From UHGV virus genome UHGV-0134778: 64,000 nucleotides of DNA; one strand, given 5' to 3'. A program made the position numbers and the translations under genes. The notes under the pieces are model-generated. The model was not told the origin of the DNA, did not search any database, and saw only the letters and a program-made list of their open reading frames with translations. This DNA comes from a virus. Shown here one piece after another: positions 23,612 through 40,164 of this stretch; position 1 is the stretch's first letter, and the number at the start of each line of letters is the position of its first letter.

Positions 23612-23631
23612 CCACACATCATTTGGAGAAT

Positions 23632-23733
23632 ATGGGATACACAATGAAAACATTGTCAGAGGTTTTGGTGGTGATCCTGATGATCATTACGTCCATAGTG
23701 GCTGTTGCCGGAATACTCACGGGTGGAACATGA
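23632..23733 (+). CDS. small hydrophobic peptide (33 aa), below track cutoff
   Basis: GGAG RBS 4 nt upstream; MGYTMKTLSEVLVVILMIITSIVAVAGILTGGT; lies inside doubtful track ORF 23529..23942. Confidence 0.4.
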   Translation: MGYTMKTLSEVLVVILMIITSIVAVAGILTGGT

Positions 23734-24063
23734 TAAACACACATGCATCTGAAGAGACATCCAAAGGAGTGACTATATGTCCCTTGGCTGAGCCAGTGAA
23801 AGAGGAAAACTTAGATTCTGAAGATTCTCCATCTTCGCTCCAGGTAGATCCTGAGGCTGATGACCTAACGTGGGAAGACATCGTAGACATCTGGTTCTCC
23901 ATTATGCCTGAGCACGAAGAGTTCAGAGGTGGCAGACTATGAAGCACCGAGCCCACACAGGTTCCTCATGCTAAAGCATGGCCTGAAGAGGCAAACGTGC
24001 ATAATTCCTGTGCATTGGAACGTATAAAACCCTGTTCACACTCTCATTTCTAGAGGAGATTTC

Positions 24064-24279
24064 ATGAAGATAGAAATATTTGGTGGAGCTGACAACACTT
24101 GTGGCCTGATTTACCTCGAATTCGATGAATCGTACCTGCCAGAAGTGTTAAACATGGATTCTGTTGCTGAGGCTTTGGGAGTAAGTCCTAAAGATCTCTA
24201 CTCTGGTGCTGAGATTGATGGTTGGGAGGAGACCATGAACATCGATTTCAGTGAAGTAGGTGATGAACCGCTGGACTGA
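24064..24279 (+). CDS. hypothetical acidic protein (71 aa), last plus-strand gene of block
   Basis: AGAGGAGA RBS upstream. Confidence 0.5.
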   Translation: MKIEIFGGADNTCGLIYLEFDESYLPEVLNMDSVAEALGVSPKDLYSGAEIDGWEETMNIDFSEVGDEPLD

Positions 24280-25802
24280 CACACAATTAGTTGCCCGGCT
24301 AAAGTGCTGGAAGCACCCATAACATCTTCCAACTAAATTTCCTACCAACACAGTTACTTACCCACCACACATGACTGTTTGCTTGTTTAGTGAGCAGTCA
24401 TCCCTTGACATTCTTGCCTATCTTGATAAAATTAAGTTCTTCTCTTTTCTTTTACCGAGTAATTCGGGTTTTCTGTTCTCTTCGGTTTGAAGGGGTATGG
24501 AGATACACCTGAGTGAACAGGGTGAACAACCGAACCTTTAGCTATGGCATTAGCATGGCGAAGCGGACGGGTGACGAAAGAGGGGCCGGAGGACACCAGT
24601 CACTGCCATATAGTATATGGGTGATAACCTGAAGAGTCTGAATAAGTGTTTAAGTACCAGTCAGAGGAAAAGGTGAATGGTAGCCGAAGGGGGAGGGGGG
24701 TTTCTTATATCTTTAATTTGTATACTTTATATACACTTGTAAACCAATTCAATTAGGATCTGTTTACCACACAAAGTGGATGGAGACAAATATCACCTAT
24801 TAAACTTGAATTATTTATAGAAAATACCACAACACTACTTAAGTCTTTGATTTTACACACAAATCCTACAGATACTCACCCTCCATATTTAACATACTTG
24901 TAACATATCCCATACTCTACCTGTCTGATCAATTTACCCAACTACATCCCCATATTTTTCCTGTCTGTACTACCCCTGCCCCGCCGGGAGTCCCGTCATA
25001 TCTGGCTTCCCAGCAAATATCACACCCACAAATATCATTGCCTGAAGAGGGTTTCATCCCATAATACACACCTTGCCTGAAGAGCGATTCATACACCAAC
25101 TAAATTTTTTAATTGACCCCTCCCCGCCGCCGGAGAGGTTGGCTTTTCCCACACAGGCCTGAAGAGTCAGCCAGAAATATCTGAACAGGCCCAGTTATAC
25201 CACGATTTTGACATGACCGACAGGAGTGCTACCCTGTCAGGAGCCGGTAGCGACTGGAGTGCTGCCAGGCGGACGAAATGGGAATACTTCTCATTCTTAT
25301 AACAATTCTCAAATATCGAGGCAGTGAGGCAAATTAATAGGTGAGGCCGTTCACACAGTGGCACAACATTTGCAACCTATCTTGTGGGGTGAATGAGAAT
25401 ACCTATCATTGTGAGAATAGTTATCATTACGGGCAATTTAACATAATACCCATTATGCGCACCACTGGCGATACATACAGGGATTGATAACATGGGTTAC
25501 TGTTTACGCACATAACAATTATATTTCTTACTATTTGTGCGGGATATAGTTAGCAACCAATAGATTAGATATTGACCTGCGGACTTCTGACCGTCCAGAC
25601 GTCTAAACGCCCACACAACAAGGGTTATACATACATTCCTGAATGTAAACAGGGCCGCAAAAATGCTACCATACCAGTTTGTAAATTTTTCATGCAGCAC
25701 TTGACAAAGAGGAGAAAAACTTGTCTGACACTTTTGCCACTTTTGACACTTTTACCTTTGACACAATATGACACAATAACGGCTGTTACTATTCCATATC
25801 TC

Positions 25803-25858
25803 ACTGTTTACGCATAGACTGTTTACGCCTGAATAGTTTACGCCCAAACTGTTTACAC
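25803..25858 (+). repeat. four tandem iteron-like repeats ACTGTTTACGC
   Basis: ACTGTTTACGC at 25803 and 25818, AGTTTACGC at 25835, ACTGTTTACAC at 25848; further copies near 25508 and 26322. Confidence 0.7.
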
Positions 25859-25869
25859 AGAGATGATGA

Positions 25870-26163
25870 GCCATGCCATTCGTTTGCATGAAAACAATTA
25901 ACAAGATAACAATTAACAAGTTAATAATCTTTCGCTGGCTATGCCAGGTGACTAGGTCACCCCTTCGGGCGTTTATATGACATAATATAAAAGCAGGGCA
26001 ACTATTAGAAGATCTATAGTTGCCTTGCTTGTTATGTCATGATTAACTAAATACAAGGCAACTATGATCTGAGTAATAGATTGCAGAAAAACTATCACGG
26101 GGGTGATGGTTACTGCTTTTATATTATGTCGCGACTCCGTCGCGCCATGCCATTCGTTTGCAT
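25870..26163. repeat. composite element: 20-bp direct repeats flanking 18-bp inverted repeats and GGCAACTAT hairpins
   Basis: DR GCCATGCCATTCGTTTGCAT at 25870 and 26144; IR GACATAATATAAAAGCAG (25979-25996) vs CTGCTTTTATATTATGTC (26113-26130); GGCAACTAT/ATAGTTGCC four times; palindromes GGTGACTAGGTCACC and GCGACTCCGTCGC. Confidence 0.7.
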
Positions 26164-26780
26164 AGTTGCCTTATTGTTACAGGTAAAATAATTACATTAT
26201 TAATTATTTCTTATCTTTCTCTTAGTCATCTAATGATTCCAGTCAGTATAGTAATGTACAGTAAACATTAGACGACTAAAGATTTCTCTGTTTATGATAA
26301 CTCATCGTGATAATTTCGGGCTGTTTACGAAAAATGTTGACACCTGAGCTGATTTATGTTATGCAGTCTACACGAATAATTATTTTATGCAGGTATTGAC
26401 TATTCCGTTATTCTGTGGTTGGAATAAATACTTTGCAGGCTATAGAATGGCGTGCGTACGTGAATTCTGAGATCTGGCGGCTATAGTTATACTCGATTTT
26501 TCGCGTAGAACACGCTTTAGATGCTGTGTAAGTGTATGACTTATAAAGATTTTTAGTTGTTGACAAGATATTGGAGATGTGCATCAGGTTAAAATTTGTG
26601 CAATAGCGGCATTACGTGCACTTTTGGGAGAGAAAACGGGTAAAAATGGACTTGCTACCACACAATGAAAAATTATGCAATAGTTATTTTCCATGTATAT
26701 TTGTACAGTATGTGGGATTGATGGCTAGTCAATTATTCCACTTGCCAGGTAGGGCCGTTTATGGTAGGAGAAGAGCAGAC

Positions 26781-26805
26781 AAAAAGAAAGGGGCCTAAGC
26801 CCCTT
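26781..26805 (-). terminator. intrinsic terminator ending the minus-strand block
   Basis: On minus strand AAGGGGC-TTAG-GCCCCTT hairpin followed by TCTTTTT. Confidence 0.6.
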
Positions 26806-26823
26806 GATAATTCAGTTAAAAAA

Positions 26824-27243
26824 TTATAATGATTCGTATATTTCAAAAATCCGATTTGCCAGGTCGTTACGGTAGCTGAATTTTTCCTCACGTTTGATCA
26901 TAAGATCTTTATAGCCGTACTCTTTAAGCACTTCATTAACTTTATGGCGGCATACTTTCATATTATCCTGCGCGTCACCAATAAATCTGTTGCTATGGTG
27001 CATGGCTTTAATTTCTTCTTCCAGGACCAGGGCAACTATGCGGACCGGATCAAGCTGATAGGCGGTAACATCCATGCGGCATTGTAAACGGCTTTTTACG
27101 TCTGCCACCGGATATACTGCAACCTCTTCCCCGTCAACATTGACAATAATTAGTTTACCATCGATTTCGAATCCTTTCGCCGCCGGACCGTGACAAAAAG
27201 CGTTATCAAAGCTATATGCCGGATTATTAGATTTAATGTTCAT
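26824..27243 (-). CDS. hypothetical protein (139 aa)
   Basis: Co-oriented minus-strand ORF. Confidence 0.55.
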   Translation of the reverse strand: MNIKSNNPAYSFDNAFCHGPAAKGFEIDGKLIIVNVDGEEVAVYPVADVKSRLQCRMDVTAYQLDPVRIVALVLEEEIKAMHHSNRFIGDAQDNMKVCRHKVNEVLKEYGYKDLMIKREEKFSYRNDLANRIFEIYESL

Positions 27244-27387
27244 GGTGTTTTTACCTCTTAGTTAATTTTCTTACAACTTCCCTTCAAAAAAGAATATAGC
27301 AAAACTGCCGATCCCTGTCAACCAGGGATAGCGTAATTTTTATGTGATCAAGGGGCTTTATTGCCCCTGACCATGTAACTTGTTGTA

Positions 27388-27651
27388 TTATTTGTTGCTC
27401 ATCCAGTTTTCCCAAGCTGCCTGATAATCTGCCTCACTACGGCGGATCTCTTCTTGCTCTTCAAGGCGGATCTCTTCTTCCAGGTACCCCAAGATGTCAG
27501 CCTTTTTAGTCTGGCGTAGCATCCAGTCATCTTTTTTGCGAGTGAAGATCTTATAAGCTTTCTCGCAAACCTCTTTTTTGCTACCTTTCTGGACTTCAAG
27601 AACACGATAAGCCATATATTGAACTAATTTGAGCTGATCAAGACGTTTCAT
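27388..27651 (-). CDS. hypothetical protein (87 aa)
   Basis: AAAGAGG RBS; upstream GC hairpin. Confidence 0.55.
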   Translation of the reverse strand: MKRLDQLKLVQYMAYRVLEVQKGSKKEVCEKAYKIFTRKKDDWMLRQTKKADILGYLEEEIRLEEQEEIRRSEADYQAAWENWMSNK

Positions 27652-27711
27652 GATGTTTACCTCTTTGTGCGGTTCTGATTAGTGGGCCTTTTGGCCCGTG
27701 TCATTATCTTA

Positions 27712-27984
27712 TTACTTATGGCGGCAGAATTCAAGCGTTTTTAATTGATAATCTTCCTCAGCTTGGAGTACGACCGCCTCGATCATTTCGTTGGCATTGT
27801 TAAAGCCATAACCTTTAGCGAACTCATCCGCGCCACCTTCGTGATCATGTTCTGCGTTCATCGCTTCCACAAAATGGAATTCCAAATTGTTGAGGTAGGG
27901 GCTTGATGTTCCGTCCTCTTTTTCGATGAGATCCCAAATAGCATTAAAACGTGATTCGACTTCTTGATTAATCCAGCTTGACAT
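27712..27984 (-). CDS. hypothetical acidic protein (90 aa)
   Basis: GGAGAGAGG RBS; upstream GC hairpin. Confidence 0.55.
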   Translation of the reverse strand: MSSWINQEVESRFNAIWDLIEKEDGTSSPYLNNLEFHFVEAMNAEHDHEGGADEFAKGYGFNNANEMIEAVVLQAEEDYQLKTLEFCRHK

Positions 27985-28201
27985 AGTGTTTTCCTCTCTC
28001 CTGGTTGTTGTGTGGGCACTTTTGCCCCTTCAAGATAAATGTTACCTCACCCCATGGCAGATGTCAACGGTTTTTATAGTTCTTATATGACAGGCAGGCC
28101 CGGTGATTGTCTCCCCCTGTTCCCAAGTGCCGCCCGTTTAATAAGAATAGCAAAAGGGGCCGAACAAGTCAACCCCAAAATCAGTACCAAAACACTTTTA
28201 T

Positions 28202-28513
28202 TTATACGGTCCGATCATTGGCCTTTGTCCAGGACCTGGCGATCCGTTTCCCGGTCACCTGGAACGGAGGCTGCATTGTGTGTAATGAGTCCAGAGTAAG
28301 GGAGGACCGTTTACGGCGTATCTTCAGGATCGCTAACGTATTGTCCATCTCACGGCCAGGTCCTGGGCGGTATGGTGTGCCTCCAGCGTTAAGGTTGATG
28401 ATCTCATGTATTGAGATCCGGCGTTGTTTTGCTTCCGCATCTTTGAAGATAGCCAGCGGAGGCGCTATGCGTTGCCGATACCAATCTAAAACGGTTGGCG
28501 TAATAGCGATCAT
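28202..28513 (-). CDS. hypothetical protein (103 aa)
   Basis: GGGGGTAAAAT RBS; preferred over antisense track ORF 28107..28562. Confidence 0.45.
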   Translation of the reverse strand: MIAITPTVLDWYRQRIAPPLAIFKDAEAKQRRISIHEIINLNAGGTPYRPGPGREMDNTLAILKIRRKRSSLTLDSLHTMQPPFQVTGKRIARSWTKANDRTV

Positions 28514-28701
28514 ATTTTACCCCCTATGTAGTCCGGTCGGTTTTTCTCTGTCATACGCTTAAGCAATTCTTGCATGTTGCTTATGGCTTGTAGTGTATCC
28601 TCTTCAAGGGATGAATCAAGATAATCAGGATCATTCTTCACCTTGCAATGATTATGATAACGCAGCACCGCCAGTACTTTTTTAACTTCTTCTGCTGTCA
28701 T
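28510..28701 (-). CDS. hypothetical protein (63 aa)
   Basis: ATGA overlap with downstream gene. Confidence 0.5.
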   Translation of the reverse strand: MTAEEVKKVLAVLRYHNHCKVKNDPDYLDSSLEEDTLQAISNMQELLKRMTEKNRPDYIGGKI

Positions 28702-28846
28702 TATTCCACCTAAAACAATGAGTTAATATATAACATTAGATCGCTGACCACCAGGACAACACTGATCAGCACATGCCTAACCATAAAGGGAAAGATCGCC
28801 AACATTGCCACCACGATCCCCATGGTAATAATTATCTTTCTCATGG

Positions 28847-29131
28847 TTAACGGTTCACGTAAGTTTTCCCGTTTACGGTTATCGGCAGATCCTCCAGGTC
28901 TGGATCTTCTTTAAGGTCGCGAGCAAGTTCACCGCACCGGACGCCCTCGAATCCGTAGTACTCTGTCGTTCCGTCCTTAAAAGTTTTTGCGGCAAGGCAT
29001 AAGCGATAAGTAACACCGATTTGATTGACGGCATGGATATCAGTTAGATCTACCTCTTTTGCCAGCTCTTTGGCCATTACAGGCGCATTAAGTCCAATAA
29101 CCAAGGCAACCACTGCGATCATCTTTTTCAT
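28847..29131 (-). CDS. hypothetical secreted protein (94 aa)
   Basis: Signal-peptide-like N-terminus MKKMIAVVALVIGLNAPVMA. Confidence 0.55.
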   Translation of the reverse strand: MKKMIAVVALVIGLNAPVMAKELAKEVDLTDIHAVNQIGVTYRLCLAAKTFKDGTTEYYGFEGVRCGELARDLKEDPDLEDLPITVNGKTYVNR

Positions 29132-29220
29132 GTTTTCTATTCTCTTTCTGTTGCGTTTAAGGCGGCGACAACCGCCTGTTTATGCTTTGTCGGTTAATAG
29201 GGCGTACGGTATAGATTAAA

Positions 29221-29445
29221 CTATGCTGTACGCTCAACTATGACAACGGCTTGAGGGATCTCACCTTCCACCACTATCAAGGCTTTTTTCTGCGTAATAG
29301 ATATCTTTACCCGCTTCAGCGTGGCGGTAAAGTCTTTCATTTCGTCACGTGGTGTTTTAGTGCAATGCCAGATCTCAGGCTTACCTATTTGCAAGCCGCG
29401 TAAAAATTCCGTTTTTCCTGTTTTGTTCGTGATCATTTGTTTCAC
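29221..29445 (-). CDS. hypothetical protein (74 aa)
   Basis: Co-oriented ORF. Confidence 0.5.
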   Translation of the reverse strand: MKQMITNKTGKTEFLRGLQIGKPEIWHCTKTPRDEMKDFTATLKRVKISITQKKALIVVEGEIPQAVVIVERTA

Positions 29446-29446
29446 C

Positions 29447-29551
29447 TTACCCGATACCGTTGGAAGACAAGATCATATTAGCCATGGTTGCAATCAGGCC
29501 AATACCCAGGGCAATAACCAGGATCACCGCATCAATTAATTTCTGTTTCAT
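29447..29551 (-). CDS. small hydrophobic peptide (34 aa), below track cutoff
   Basis: AAGAGGAAAACAAG RBS; MKQKLIDAVILVIALGIGLIATMANMILSSNGIG. Confidence 0.4.
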   Translation of the reverse strand: MKQKLIDAVILVIALGIGLIATMANMILSSNGIG

Positions 29552-29897
29552 CTTGTTTTCCTCTTCTTGTTCCAGGTGGCGGACCATTCCGCCGCCTTAT
29601 GTATTATGCTTTGTTAGATGGTTGTTTGTTGTCAAACTGTTTTAACGATAATCATCGTACGCTTTATTAACCTGGCGAATATAACATTCAAAAGCCAGAT
29701 CAATAGATTTATATTCACGGATATATTCACCATAGGAAACTACATACATTTCTATAGCCTCCTCATATGCGAGGAGAATAGAATCCAAGCCTACGATCTC
29801 AGTCTTTGCAATAATAGCCATGATTTTTTATCCTCTTTGTGGTTGGTGGGGCTTGTTGCCCCCTTTGATTTATATACTACAGTCTTATAGGGTCATG

Positions 29898-30131
29898 TCA
29901 ACTATTTTCAAAAAATTTTTCTGCTGTGATATTTTTCCCGGTAGGGTTCGCTACTTTTAAAATTCTATCATGCACCGGACGCCCGAAAGAATAAGATCCG
30001 TATACAGTAAACCAATAATCACCGTCAGGCTGTACTATTACCGCCGCATATGGTACGCCTTTTTCATTATTGCTCACAAAATAGATCACATTGCCATTAA
30101 TAGCCTCAGCGCGTTTAATTTGTTCCATCAT
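29898..30131 (-). CDS. hypothetical protein (77 aa)
   Basis: AAAGAGAGG RBS; upstream GC hairpin. Confidence 0.55.
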   Translation of the reverse strand: MMEQIKRAEAINGNVIYFVSNNEKGVPYAAVIVQPDGDYWFTVYGSYSFGRPVHDRILKVANPTGKNITAEKFFENS

Positions 30132-30187
30132 GATGATTTGCCTCTCTTTATTTTCATAATTGGGGGGCCTTTTCGGCCCCGCCAGGT

Positions 30188-30472
30188 TTATTTATTGATA
30201 GCGTGCAGCGGGAAAGGTACGCCAGGTTGATAGATAACTTTTACAACCTCATCAGGACAAAAGAAGTTGCAGAACTCACCGCAATAGGCCTCATCCTCTT
30301 TCAACTCTTCATCAACATACTCAAAAAAGTAGTCGATGCTTGGATAATCCTGGCCGGGATTATAGTCGACCATCGTTAATAGTAACTCTTGATCATTCCG
30401 TAGGATATGCATACCCGCTTTTAAGTATTTTGCTTCCATTTCTACTACATCGCCAACGGTAACAATAGCCAT
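30188..30472 (-). CDS. hypothetical acidic protein (94 aa)
   Basis: Co-oriented ORF; upstream GC hairpin. Confidence 0.55.
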   Translation of the reverse strand: MAIVTVGDVVEMEAKYLKAGMHILRNDQELLLTMVDYNPGQDYPSIDYFFEYVDEELKEDEAYCGEFCNFFCPDEVVKVIYQPGVPFPLHAINK

Positions 30473-30696
30473 GGTTTTAACTCCTATCTATCCGGTTAAT
30501 GATTGGGGGCCGCCCCCCTGATACGTCCTATTATCCATATTGTAGGGCTTGATGCAAGTACTTCTTTAAATTTTTTTAAGCGCCTTGGGGGCCGCTGTAA
30601 CGCTAAAATAATAAAGGCCATGCAACCGCATAGCCTTTATGTGATTATATCGCTTCAGGCCCTGCTAGGGGCCTTATTTTGCATCATTTGCCGGAA

Positions 30697-36602: not shown

Positions 36603-37059
36603 GATTTTTATCCTCTCTGTTAATTAGTGTGGTGTTGTTCACCTTGCGAGGATAAGAATAACAGAACTATCCGAGCTGTCAACCGTTAGTTAGAATTATT
36701 TTTTGGGCAGAATTCTCCAGCCGCCGCCACTGCCAGGTTAACCATCATTTTTTCGTACTCTTCTTTATGTTCCAACGCTCCCGCCATAGCCTTTTCAACC
36801 AGGGTGATAGCCTCAGCGTCATTAATCGCTACATTTCCAGGGGATCAAATTACCTTTCATTTTTGTACCTCCTCTTCAATTGTTACCTGCCCTGTAGCAT
36901 AGGCCTACCAGGTTTGCAAGTTTTCACTCTCTCCTACCTGGTCAGTCAGGTCCTGCCAGGCTGGCCCCGCCAGGTTGCAGCGGTTGGTGCATTATGTTAG
37001 AAAAAATTTTTGAAGAAGTGTTGACAGCGGCCCCGCCAGGTGGCACAATATACCTATCG

Positions 37060-37340
37060 AAAGGACGGCAGGCACCGGTGACGGGGGAGACAACCACCGG
37101 GGATAGGCGCTGCATAAAATGAGAACGGTTATCATTATCATTTAAAAATTTATGCAAAAAATCCTTGCTTTCTTTGTCCTGTGTGATACTATAATAACAA
37201 GCCGGGGCAACAGGGGCCGGGAGACAATCACCGGGGGTGCCCGTTATTCTGCAAACGAGAATGATTATCATTCAAAATTCTAAATGAGAACTCCTCGCAT
37301 TTAATAAATTTAATTAGCATGCTAATTACCCTCCGTAACA
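37060..37340. repeat. two tandem copies of an approximately 135-bp repeat unit
   Basis: GGGAGACAACCACCGGGG...GAGAACGGTTATCATT (37084-) vs GGGAGACAATCACCGGGG...GAGAATGATTATCATT (37219-). Confidence 0.65.
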
Positions 37341-37399
37341 ATTTCCTATAAAACAATATCTCATAAAATATTCCCATATATAAATTTTAAAAATCCATT

Positions 37400-37569
37400 T
37401 CTGAAAACGAAAAATCGATTTCGTCCCCAAAAATTTTAGGTCGAGCGCCGGAACGATTTCCAGAAAATCTGATTCAGAAAACGAAAAACAGATCGAGTAC
37501 TAAGAAATTTATCGAGAAAAATTTTCAGAAAATCAGGTATTTGAAATGAAAAACAGATCGAGTACCGAG
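37400..37569. repeat. three iteron-like direct repeats GAAAACGAAAAAC(A)GATCGAGTAC
   Basis: Copies at about 37400, 37475 and 37543 in an A-rich tract. Confidence 0.6.
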
Positions 37570-37879
37570 AGAGATGTGCCGAAACTTTCTGATAGGTAAT
37601 GGACTTATTGTTATAAAAGGTCAGAGGTAAGCTGGGAAAGTTCTGGTAGAAGGGTGAGAGTATGTGCGGAAAATCTGGAATAGTGACTTAAAGTACGGTG
37701 CGAACGATAGAATGAGCAGCACAGCTTATCGTGCCTGTCTTGAAAAAATCCATTTTAGTTTTCGATCCATTTTCTGATTTTCTAAGAATTTTAAAATATC
37801 CGGCCAGGTGAAATATCAAAAGGAGGAAATCCATTTTAGAAATCCTCCTTATGTTTGATGTGCCAGGGATTTTCAAGTA

Positions 37880-38209
37880 TCAACTATCTTTGTTTTTAGG
37901 CTTGTACATGCGTAGAGGTATAGTCTTTGTAACATTCCATCTCCCCAACCCTTCCCAGTTCCAATTGTGAGCGTGATACCCGGTTATGCATGCACTGCTG
38001 GCGTGATCATAAGCATAAGAGAACGCTATGCGAACCAGGTGGGGCCAGTCTTTCCACGGCTGTGGCCCGTAAGCCTTTCTCCAACACCGACACAAACTAA
38101 ATGTCTCAAGAATAGGCAGGATAACAAATCCATACACCACCACCAAGATGATCAGCGCAATGATTGTCAGGAATACATACCCTGCAGTTGAAATAATGAT
38201 CTCTGTCAT
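37880..38209 (-). CDS. hypothetical membrane protein (109 aa)
   Basis: N-terminal helix YVFLTIIALIILVVVYGFVILPI. Confidence 0.5.
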   Translation of the reverse strand: MTEIIISTAGYVFLTIIALIILVVVYGFVILPILETFSLCRCWRKAYGPQPWKDWPHLVRIAFSYAYDHASSACITGYHAHNWNWEGLGRWNVTKTIPLRMYKPKNKDS

Positions 38210-39511: not shown

Positions 39512-39705
39512 GGGAACACTTTGAGGATTGAATCTTTACTCGGTTCGGAAGTTCTTTTTCCATAGGGCAGGTAGAAATACCCTCCTGCAGATTCAAACAT
39601 GGCTCCTTCTGTTGTATCTATCACAGCTAGAATTAAGATTTTAGTCTCCATAGTGTTCCCCTGTCTTAGTCATTGTGGTGACTATACCACCTCAAACTCC
39701 GGCTG

Positions 39706-40164
39706 TCAACACTCTTTGTACTCCACCACGATAATATCTATATCAAAAGTGGCAAGGTTAATAACGTCCTCCACGTGTCCCCACTTCAAGCCGCCTATGC
39801 CGCACCCAATCTTAGGTATGTAGAATGGTAAAGTCGATCTCTTGAATATCTCATTTACTCGCTCAAAGCCTTTCAGAATTGAGAAATACTCAGCATTAGG
39901 TCCTGGGTAGAACTGAGTGTATAGATTGATTCCGTATACAATACCTTTCGGAGATAAGTGCTCCCACCGAGAGAACGCTCCTAGCTTACTTAGGCAACCG
40001 TAGGTAGTCGTTTTGTCAGCCGCCAATGCTTGAGGGAACTCACGGGAAATTTGTTTTGCTACACCCTTACCCATTGTGTGGAAGCAGTTACAACCGTGGA
40101 TCAGGTGACCAGCACCGCTCTTAAAAAGGGAGATTAGATCTCCCTCTACAGTATCAATAATCAC
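39706..40164 (-). CDS. macro-domain (ADP-ribose-binding/processing)-like protein (about 152 aa)
   Basis: Macro-like motifs GDLISLF, HGCNCFHTMGKGVAKQI, IPKIGCGIGGLKW; likely GTG start at 40164 with GAGGAG RBS (track ORF extends to 40263). Confidence 0.45.
   Translation of the reverse strand: MIIDTVEGDLISLFKSGAGHLIHGCNCFHTMGKGVAKQISREFPQALAADKTTTYGCLSKLGAFSRWEHLSPKGIVYGINLYTQFYPGPNAEYFSILKGFERVNEIFKRSTLPFYIPKIGCGIGGLKWGHVEDVINLATFDIDIIVVEYKEC

Follow-up and report, generated by a model that had tools for sequence, protein, structure and literature searches.

The direct-repeat array at 25803-25858 of this phage genome may be a redundant binding platform in the region where the direct terminal repeat (DTR) is matured and packaged, rather than a replication origin, a reading to which we assign a probability of roughly 45%. 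The array lies in a stretch of 64,000 nucleotides (the window) that, judged by its sequence, is an rV5-like Vequintavirus; the segment 24800-27300 is matched by 172 phage records at 80-97% identity. A first-pass annotation had described the repeats as a classic arrangement of initiator or regulator binding sites. Our comparisons indicate that the array is real and functional-looking, and that the binding-site part of this description holds while the classic iteron or origin part does not.

The four direct repeats are present as proposed, starting at 25803, 25818, 25833 and 25848. Units 1 and 2 (25803-25813 and 25818-25828) are both ACTGTTTACGC, unit 3 (25833-25843) is ATAGTTTACGC, with two mismatches, and unit 4 (25848-25858) is ACTGTTTACAC, with one. 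All units run head-to-tail with a start-to-start distance of exactly 15 bp; the 15-16 bp given in the first-pass annotation describes the relatives rather than the window itself. Tandem Repeats Finder reports the array with period 15, 3.6 copies and a score of 64. A motif search across the window, set against shuffled sequence in line with the check that had been suggested, revealed enrichment: the 11-mer with at most one mismatch has 4 matches in 64 kb compared to 0.88 expected, and 0 of 100 shuffles reach 4. Likewise, RTTYAC cores at 15-16 bp steps form chains of up to four in the window and of no more than two in 300 simulated sequences, and the analytic expectation for a four-core phased chain is about 1.7e-6 per window. 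These simulations and shuffles exclude chance as the source of the array. Matches to the degenerate consensus AYTRTTYACRY occur in the 64-kb window only at 25499, 25803, 25818 and 25848; 8 of the 21 TGTTTAC cores fall within 24761-26328, and 7 of the 10 tandem-repeat rows of the whole window fall within 25394-25928. The single copies noted near 25508 and 26322 were also found, the former as an exact copy and the latter as a 9/11 match.

The array sits in a gene-free gap of about 2.5 kb (~24280-26824) that is empty in careful annotations too. The genes to its left are on the plus strand and those to its right on the minus strand, so that both arms converge on the gap; the cumulative GC skew has its maximum there, and tRNA and Rfam searches of the gap found nothing. 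Two mechanical ORFs cross the array (25572-25817 on the plus strand and 25752-25919 on the minus strand), but we rejected the idea that it is coding, since any reading frame through it is broken by the gain and loss of 15- or 16-bp units in relatives.

Related records place the genome terminus within this gap. The ECP2309 record carries a 459-bp repeat, 100% identical, at both of its ends, and this repeat maps to 25268-25725 of the window. The ECP2303 record starts at the equivalent of 25726 and ends at 25725, the Aya record starts at 25725 in the opposite orientation, and bov phage records begin at about 25267. The same segment opens the records of HdK5, EdH4, YN3, Gotham and ECP2309, each of which holds two copies; the Gotham annotation lists it as repeat_region 1-459. 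Altogether, a DTR of 458 or 459 bp is found in at least five independently assembled relatives, and three further records were opened exactly at its boundaries. From these record ends and repeats, in relatives that are 95-98% identical, we infer that the DTR of the phage in the window is 25268-25725.

Korf et al. 2019 described "short terminal redundancies of 458 bp" in EdH4 and HdK5 (PMC6563267), and KPP-1, which belongs to another genus of the subfamily, has a PhageTerm-confirmed 514-bp DTR and T7-type packaging (PMC9862379). One Vequintavirus was called headful by a PhageTerm run (PMC13211470); in our view, five exact DTR assemblies outweigh this call. In the original rV5 paper, the genome was taken to be circularly permuted and was drawn with a "non-coding" box (PMC3606486). 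The DTR is thus already known from publications, and the arrays are carried in some records as a bare "repeat_region", as in the record of phage isim. Some 18-20 GenBank records (MG0656xx) bear the name "Campylobacter phage" and share more than 93% identity with E. coli vequintaviruses in this region; they are probably the result of contamination or mislabelling.

Relative to this terminus, the array begins 78 bp to the right of the DTR boundary and spans 78-133 bp from it, in unique DNA. In the virion it would lie about 536-591 bp from one physical end, once per genome. We propose the right boundary of the DTR, 25725|25726, as the candidate terminase cut site. Among 14 genomes, 78% of DTR columns are invariant. 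A search for Chi sites near the genome ends found none. The features of the terminus are collected in Table 1.

Table 1. Features of the predicted genome terminus and its surroundings, in window coordinates.
Feature	Position	Strand	Remarks
Direct terminal repeat (predicted)	25268-25725		Single copy in a collapsed or permuted assembly; at both ends in the virion
Exact outlying copy, ACTGTTTACGC	25499-25509	+	Near the DTR centre
Motif-like copy, CCTGTTTACAT	25643-25653	-	Inside the DTR; kept in 13/14 genomes
First array: TGACAY-type units, 8-11 bp period	25726-25778	+	Begins exactly at the right boundary of the DTR
Reported array: four 11-bp units, consensus AYTRTTYACRY, 15-bp period	25803-25858	+
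Conserved box, copy 1, GCCATGCCATTCGTTTGCAT	25870-25889	+	Directly right of the reported array
Third array: AACAATTAACAAG units, 15-bp period, AT-rich	25893-25928	+
Inverted repeat able to form a hairpin or cruciform	25979-26130		18-nt perfect arms (25979/26113); internal GGCAACTAT palindromes
Conserved box, copy 2, with GTCGCGCCA just before	26144-26163	+	After the inverted repeat in three genera
Least stable, most AT-rich DNA of the window	26184-26264		Rank 1 in 40-bp and 80-bp nearest-neighbour windows
Outlying copy, GCTGTTTACGA	26320-26330	+	ACTGTTTACGA in most relatives; about -47 of the promoter
Likely sigma-70 promoter, rightward: TTGACA, 17-nt spacer, TGtTATGCA	26337-26365	+

To compare the surroundings of the array, we anchored 16 Vequintavirus loci at the last bases of the DTR (…GAGGAGAAAAACTTGTC). 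The elements follow in the same order in all 16: the DTR, TGACAY units, the reported array, the conserved box, AACAATTAACAAG units and the large inverted repeat. The TGACAY array of the window (period 9 with 4.7 copies plus period 10 with 2 copies in Tandem Repeats Finder) has counterparts of 4-11 copies in all Vequintavirus loci examined, and in all of these a box (ATGATAAGCCATGCCATTCGTTTGCATGA) stands between the reported array and the AACAATTAACAAG units. The two copies of the box in the window (25870-25889 and 26144-26163) form an exact 20-nt direct repeat. The AACAATTAACAAG array has period 15 and 2.4 copies (Tandem Repeats Finder), with 0-4 units in relatives. On the other side of the DTR, 25038-25266 holds different repeats, GCCTGAAGAG three times (25040, 25075 and 25157) and CGACnGGAGTGCTnCC twice (25218 and 25251).

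All three arrays (25726-25928) contain look-alikes of a -35 hexamer on one strand, namely TTGACA/TGACAY, TTTAC(A/G) and TTAACA. The units may be alike because they descend from a common ancestor, because related domains bind them or because they interact with sigma-70; in a speculative variant, the three arrays might capture host sigma-70 RNA polymerase at the genome end. We also scanned IMG/VR for GTTTAC three times at a 15-bp phase and set the result aside as non-specific: it gave more than 120 matches, mostly in giant-virus bins, and many of them had a second match 45 bp away. The conserved box was found in 2 IMG/VR contigs only, too few for statistics.

The units of the array differ in a manner that points to selection on their core. 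We aligned 56 distinct units from 15 genomes, using a search pattern that left positions -3, -2, -1 and +7 free. These free positions nevertheless proved to be constrained, with A at -3 in 54/56 units, Y at -2, T at -1 and Y at +7 in 56/56, compared to 0.03-0.18 bits at the 4-5 spacer positions. Spacers vary among the units of a single genome, which shows that simple homogenisation of the units is not at work, and orthologous units in different phages share theirs. A core that is held between random spacers indicates old paralogous putative binding sites under purifying selection.

The number of units, on the other hand, is loosely held. Among the 16 Vequintavirus genomes it runs from 1-2 to about 11 at a 15-16 bp period: FFH2 has 1-2 units, though these are possibly collapsed in assembly; the present window, S127 BCL3, NHEP1 and Gotham have 3-5; and rV5 (105482-105631), rV5_ev156 and one IMG/VR contig have about 10-11. 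Gaps of 30-32 or 46-48 bp between units correspond to degenerate units, through which the phase is kept. The array segment is 80-90% identical among relatives, compared to 95-98% for the DTR.

This range of copy number, the lower identity of the segment, a DTR-to-hairpin distance that varies between 218 and 338 bp and the lack of the array in sister genera are what would be expected if tandem duplications simply accumulated in neutral, slippage-prone DNA between the DTR cut site and the hairpin. We consider this the least probable of the explanations and give it little credence. Neutral slippage predicts even decay or homogenisation of whole units, and the split between core and spacer in the alignment does not look like the product of either: 11 core positions are held while spacers are randomised. 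Orthologous units also retain their individual spacers between phages, phase is kept through degenerate units, and the isolated copies in the DTR and at 26320 are kept in 14/14 and 16/16 genomes, respectively.

The elements on either side of the arrays reach deeper into the subfamily. The inverted repeat has a DNA fold of -41.3 kcal/mol compared to -12.4 for shuffles (z = -10.2), and a perfect inverted repeat occurs at the same position in KPP-1 (Mydovirus, 21 nt) and A73 (Septuagintavirus, 16 nt), 220-340 bp inside the DTR boundary. The sequences of the arms differ among the three genera, yet they pair perfectly, and so complementarity has been kept by compensatory change. A box that follows the inverted repeat (…TCGCGCCA) is likewise common to the three Vequintavirinae genera. 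KPP-1 has both DTR boundary sequences and a ATGAGAAT repeat inside the DTR, and we found no tandem array between its DTR and hairpin. A73 has other repeats near its terminus: TTTGTGG units, CCAACTGT four times at a 15-bp period, and GYCCACAGAG seven times at a position that matches the left-of-DTR repeats of the window. As KPP-1 lacks the array and A73 has different repeats, not all members of the subfamily need the array for DTR processing. We read the DTR ends and the hairpin as a deep conserved core and the arrays as genus-level filling between them; leaving the DTR ends aside, the hairpin probably has the deepest conservation of any element of the terminus.

Both outlying copies of the motif are conserved in all the relatives that we compared. 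The copy at 25499 is kept as GTTACnGTTTACRC in 14/14 genomes, and the copy at 26320 is kept as RCTGTTTACGA in 16/16, directly upstream of an invariant TTGACA (26337-26342). Across the 16 genomes, the hexamer regions at this site are invariant and the spacer between them is variable, which indicates a real sigma-70 promoter with an extended -10 (26357-26365); our consensus scan missed it because the last base of its -10 is A. There is no credible ORF downstream of this promoter and no strong plus-strand terminator between it and the gene for a 139-aa protein (26824-27243), so its transcript may be non-coding or antisense; transcription from the promoter would enter the 139-aa gene in the antisense direction. 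The promoter is followed 26 bp downstream by a similar TTATTTTATGCAG.

The copy at about -47 is the one piece of evidence that ties the motif to transcription, and it raises an alternative in which the repeats are operator or activator sites for a regulator that also controls this rightward promoter. The array would then be a high-capacity site cluster, serving for example in titration of the regulator or in a repressive complex at the genome end, such as the one that phi29 p6 builds at the end of its genome. Head-to-tail direct-repeat sites are typical of winged-helix regulators, and conservation of RCTGTTTACGA in 16/16 genomes, directly upstream of an invariant -35 with a variable spacer and conserved extended -10, is in keeping with this idea. 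However, the whole block 26320-26342 is invariant, and conservation of the motif there could instead reflect a part of the promoter resembling an UP element. A motif-like copy over the start site is poorly conserved, the consensus scan found no promoter within about 150 bp of the four-unit array, no ORF follows the 26337 promoter and no regulator gene was found among the flanking genes. We therefore consider regulator sites an unlikely explanation of the array, albeit the strongest of the alternatives.

A second operator-like motif bears on the same idea. The near-palindromic GAGAATNNNTATCATT has 4 copies in 64 kb compared to 0.2 expected, two inside the DTR (25395-25428) and the others only in intergenic DNA at about 37.1-37.3 kb (37121-37272); from its sequence it looks like an operator for a dimeric regulator. 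The stretch at ~37000-37880 is a second gene-poor, AT-rich and repeat-rich region, with a local flip in the sign of the GC skew and a promoter-like TTGCTT…TGTGATACTATAAT, and it could be a control region or an origin candidate. Separately, a palindrome within the DTR (CGTCCAGACGTCTAAACG, 25592-25609) contains AGACGTCT, which we take to be the MetJ met-box consensus; like most of the DTR, it is invariant in 14 genomes. At the left of the gap, after the last plus-strand gene, there is a near-consensus promoter at 24405 (TTGACA, 16 nt, TAAAAT with TG), and a weak terminator-like hairpin comes about 25 nt after it, beyond which a G-rich stretch runs to ~24710. We rejected a non-coding RNA downstream of this promoter (fold z = -1.3, no Rfam match).

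The first-pass annotation had also raised an initiator. On this view the repeats would be replication-origin iterons, and an initiator would bind the array and melt nearby AT-rich DNA. Direct repeats under selection would fit such a role, as would the AT-rich AACAATT units 35 bp away, the least stable DNA of the window 330 bp away and the nearby promoter. End-proximal origins exist in other short-DTR phages: T7 phiOL is annotated at 405, and N4 is another short-DTR phage with an origin near its end. Like plasmid and lambdoid iterons, the repeats of the array share one orientation and a conserved core, lie close to an AT-rich stretch and have additional single copies near a promoter. But classic origin iterons have units of 17-22 bp phased at about 22 bp, or about two helical turns, whereas the array has an 11-bp core at 15-16 bp and is situated at a physical end of the genome. 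The interval 23616-30531, which includes the gap, is free of DnaA boxes, and within 20 kb on each side a curated relative is annotated only with hypothetical proteins and no initiator-like or DNA-binding gene. The maximum of cumulative GC skew and the convergent gene arms have the polarity of a terminus, although skew is confounded with the direction of transcription; in rV5, skew changes at several coordinates, including 104425-105475, are all tied to transcription orientation (PMC3606486). Furthermore, sister genera with the same replication genes lack the array, and its copy number drops to 1-2 in FFH2. Taken together, these observations make an origin improbable, more so than regulator sites.

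If proteins bind the array, as the constrained core, the conserved outlying copies and the copy upstream of a promoter suggest, their genes are not obvious nearby. The ten flanking proteins have no Pfam domain and match only PHROGs of unknown function. We considered an 87-aa protein (27388-27651, minus strand) as an FtsK-gamma DNA binder and rejected it, as it has no Pfam FtsK domain and an unknown-function PHROG; the "DNA translocase FtsK" label that it bears in several relatives seems to have spread from a single early record. The 139-aa gene, labelled "Rel homology domain" in Murica, was likewise dismissed as a partner: it is absent from Gotham and 241Ecol014PP despite their arrays, and so does not correlate with the array. 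Host regulators fare no better. To our knowledge, none of the motifs of PhoP (TGTTTA-N5-TGTTTA), OmpR, PhoB, TyrR, LexA and ArcA fits a 15-16 bp period. A scan of bacterial and archaeal genomes for the phased triple with RY flanks returned 84 scattered, unrelated matches with none in E. coli, which lends no support to the site array of a host regulator or to plasmid iterons.

The closest architectural parallel that we found is the end of the T7 genome. Short-repeat arrays flanking the terminal repeat (SRL and SRR) were reportedly described in the T7 group by Dunn and Studier in 1983, and we checked the layout on the T7 sequence (NC_001604). At the left end, about 12 CCTAAAG units with a 13-bp period (175-341) come after the terminal repeat (1-160), which itself contains three further copies. 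At the right end, an imperfect palindrome (39568-39608) and a second array (39620-39725) precede the repeat (39778-39937), a mirror image of the DTR, arrays and hairpin in the window. Both systems have a short exact DTR and an array in unique, non-coding DNA tens of bp from the repeat boundary. They also share a period that does not correspond to full helical turns (13 bp in T7, 15-16 bp here), additional copies within the repeat, a palindrome on the far side of the array and differences in copy number between close relatives.

The parallel is one of architecture only. CCTAAAG and AYTRTTYACRY share no sequence similarity; T7 has one unit on both sides of its repeat, whereas different repeat families flank the two sides of the DTR here; three different arrays stand in series here; and this phage is a 137-kb myovirus without an RNA polymerase of its own. 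As far as we know, it has never been settled what the T7 arrays do, so the analogy extends to architecture but not to mechanism. In T7-like Yersinia phages, the number of such repeats that separate the left repeat from the first phage promoter ranges from 11 to 34 (PMC5923468), and the packaging specificity of T3 and T7 maps within 5% of the termini (PMC3276506). T7 must duplicate its terminal repeat at maturation, and a hairpin intermediate has been reported, according to the passage of PMC4281155 that cites Molineux 2006 and Chung & Hinkle 1990.

Like the array, several terminase recognition sites near a cut site (the R-sites of lambda cosB, the hexamers of P1 pac, and SPP1 pacL and pacR) consist of several short repeats within about 50-200 bp of the site of terminase cleavage, on one side of it. 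Unlike the array, they are not simple head-to-tail series at 15 bp; the array, for its part, is dispensable at the genus level, and binding by the terminase small subunit is putative. The terminase genes are located outside the window. Among phages that share the packaging system, the array is present in 16/16 Vequintavirus genomes, absent from KPP-1 and replaced in A73, both of which have homologous DTR ends and the hairpin. The "A repeats" of the adenovirus packaging domain are also redundant short repeats just inside the terminal repeat at one genome end, and redundancy of this kind would explain why copy number is tolerated over so wide a range. Adenovirus infects eukaryotes and has unrelated proteins, and its repeats have a bipartite TTTG-N8-CG motif with a spacing rule of 21 bp; this likeness is an analogy only.

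We prefer the end-processing and packaging reading because it is the best fit to the position of the array, the conserved order of elements, the redundancy of the units and the parallel with T7. In this model, the redundant phased sites would be recognised by one sequence-specific DNA-binding protein, probably encoded by the phage, which might be the terminase small subunit or an accessory factor. In replicating concatemers the elements follow one another as DTR, TGACAY units, array, box, AACAATTAACAAG units and hairpin, and the bound protein would form a nucleoprotein complex in the interval that separates the hairpin from the terminase cut site (25725|25726). Such a complex would help to determine where or when the DTR is cut and duplicated, as every packaged genome requires. 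Several observations count against this reading: the array is genus-specific, the flanking proteins are all unknowns, FFH2 has so few units, a different unit (GCCTGAAGAG) lies on the other side of the DTR, and the conserved copy at about -47 of the promoter points to transcription. One protein could serve several of these roles, by analogy to phi29 p6, which serves more than one role at the ends of the phi29 genome.

A bolder form of the packaging reading is possible, though we hold it more tentatively. The array, the DTR cut site and the covarying hairpin may together be a module for duplication and maturation of the terminal repeat, similar to that of T7 but in a large family of myoviruses without a phage RNA polymerase. 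The 11-bp units would be the places where a protein docks and thereby determines the sites of nicking and priming; this protein would be either the terminase small subunit or an accessory factor dedicated to the task.

These results place the true genome ends in the window at 25268 and 25725, which matters as it is still common to deposit vequintavirus genomes as "circularly permuted", with start points chosen arbitrarily. A further lesson is that "iteron-like" repeats clustered in a phage contig can be the sign of a collapsed genome terminus instead of an origin. The recognition of ends and the duplication of repeats in short-DTR phages have been partly worked out, essentially in T7 and T3 only. 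If the array is part of such a duplication and maturation module, it would be the first defined cis-acting recognition array for short-DTR myoviruses, and vequintaviruses would provide a second, independent system for solving the duplication of a terminal repeat. Vequintaviruses also offer a tractable E. coli system for testing the role of such arrays. As vequintaviruses are common therapeutic and biocontrol coliphages, a defined terminus module comprising the cut site, the arrays and the covarying hairpin would be of use in engineering these phages and in orienting their genomes correctly.
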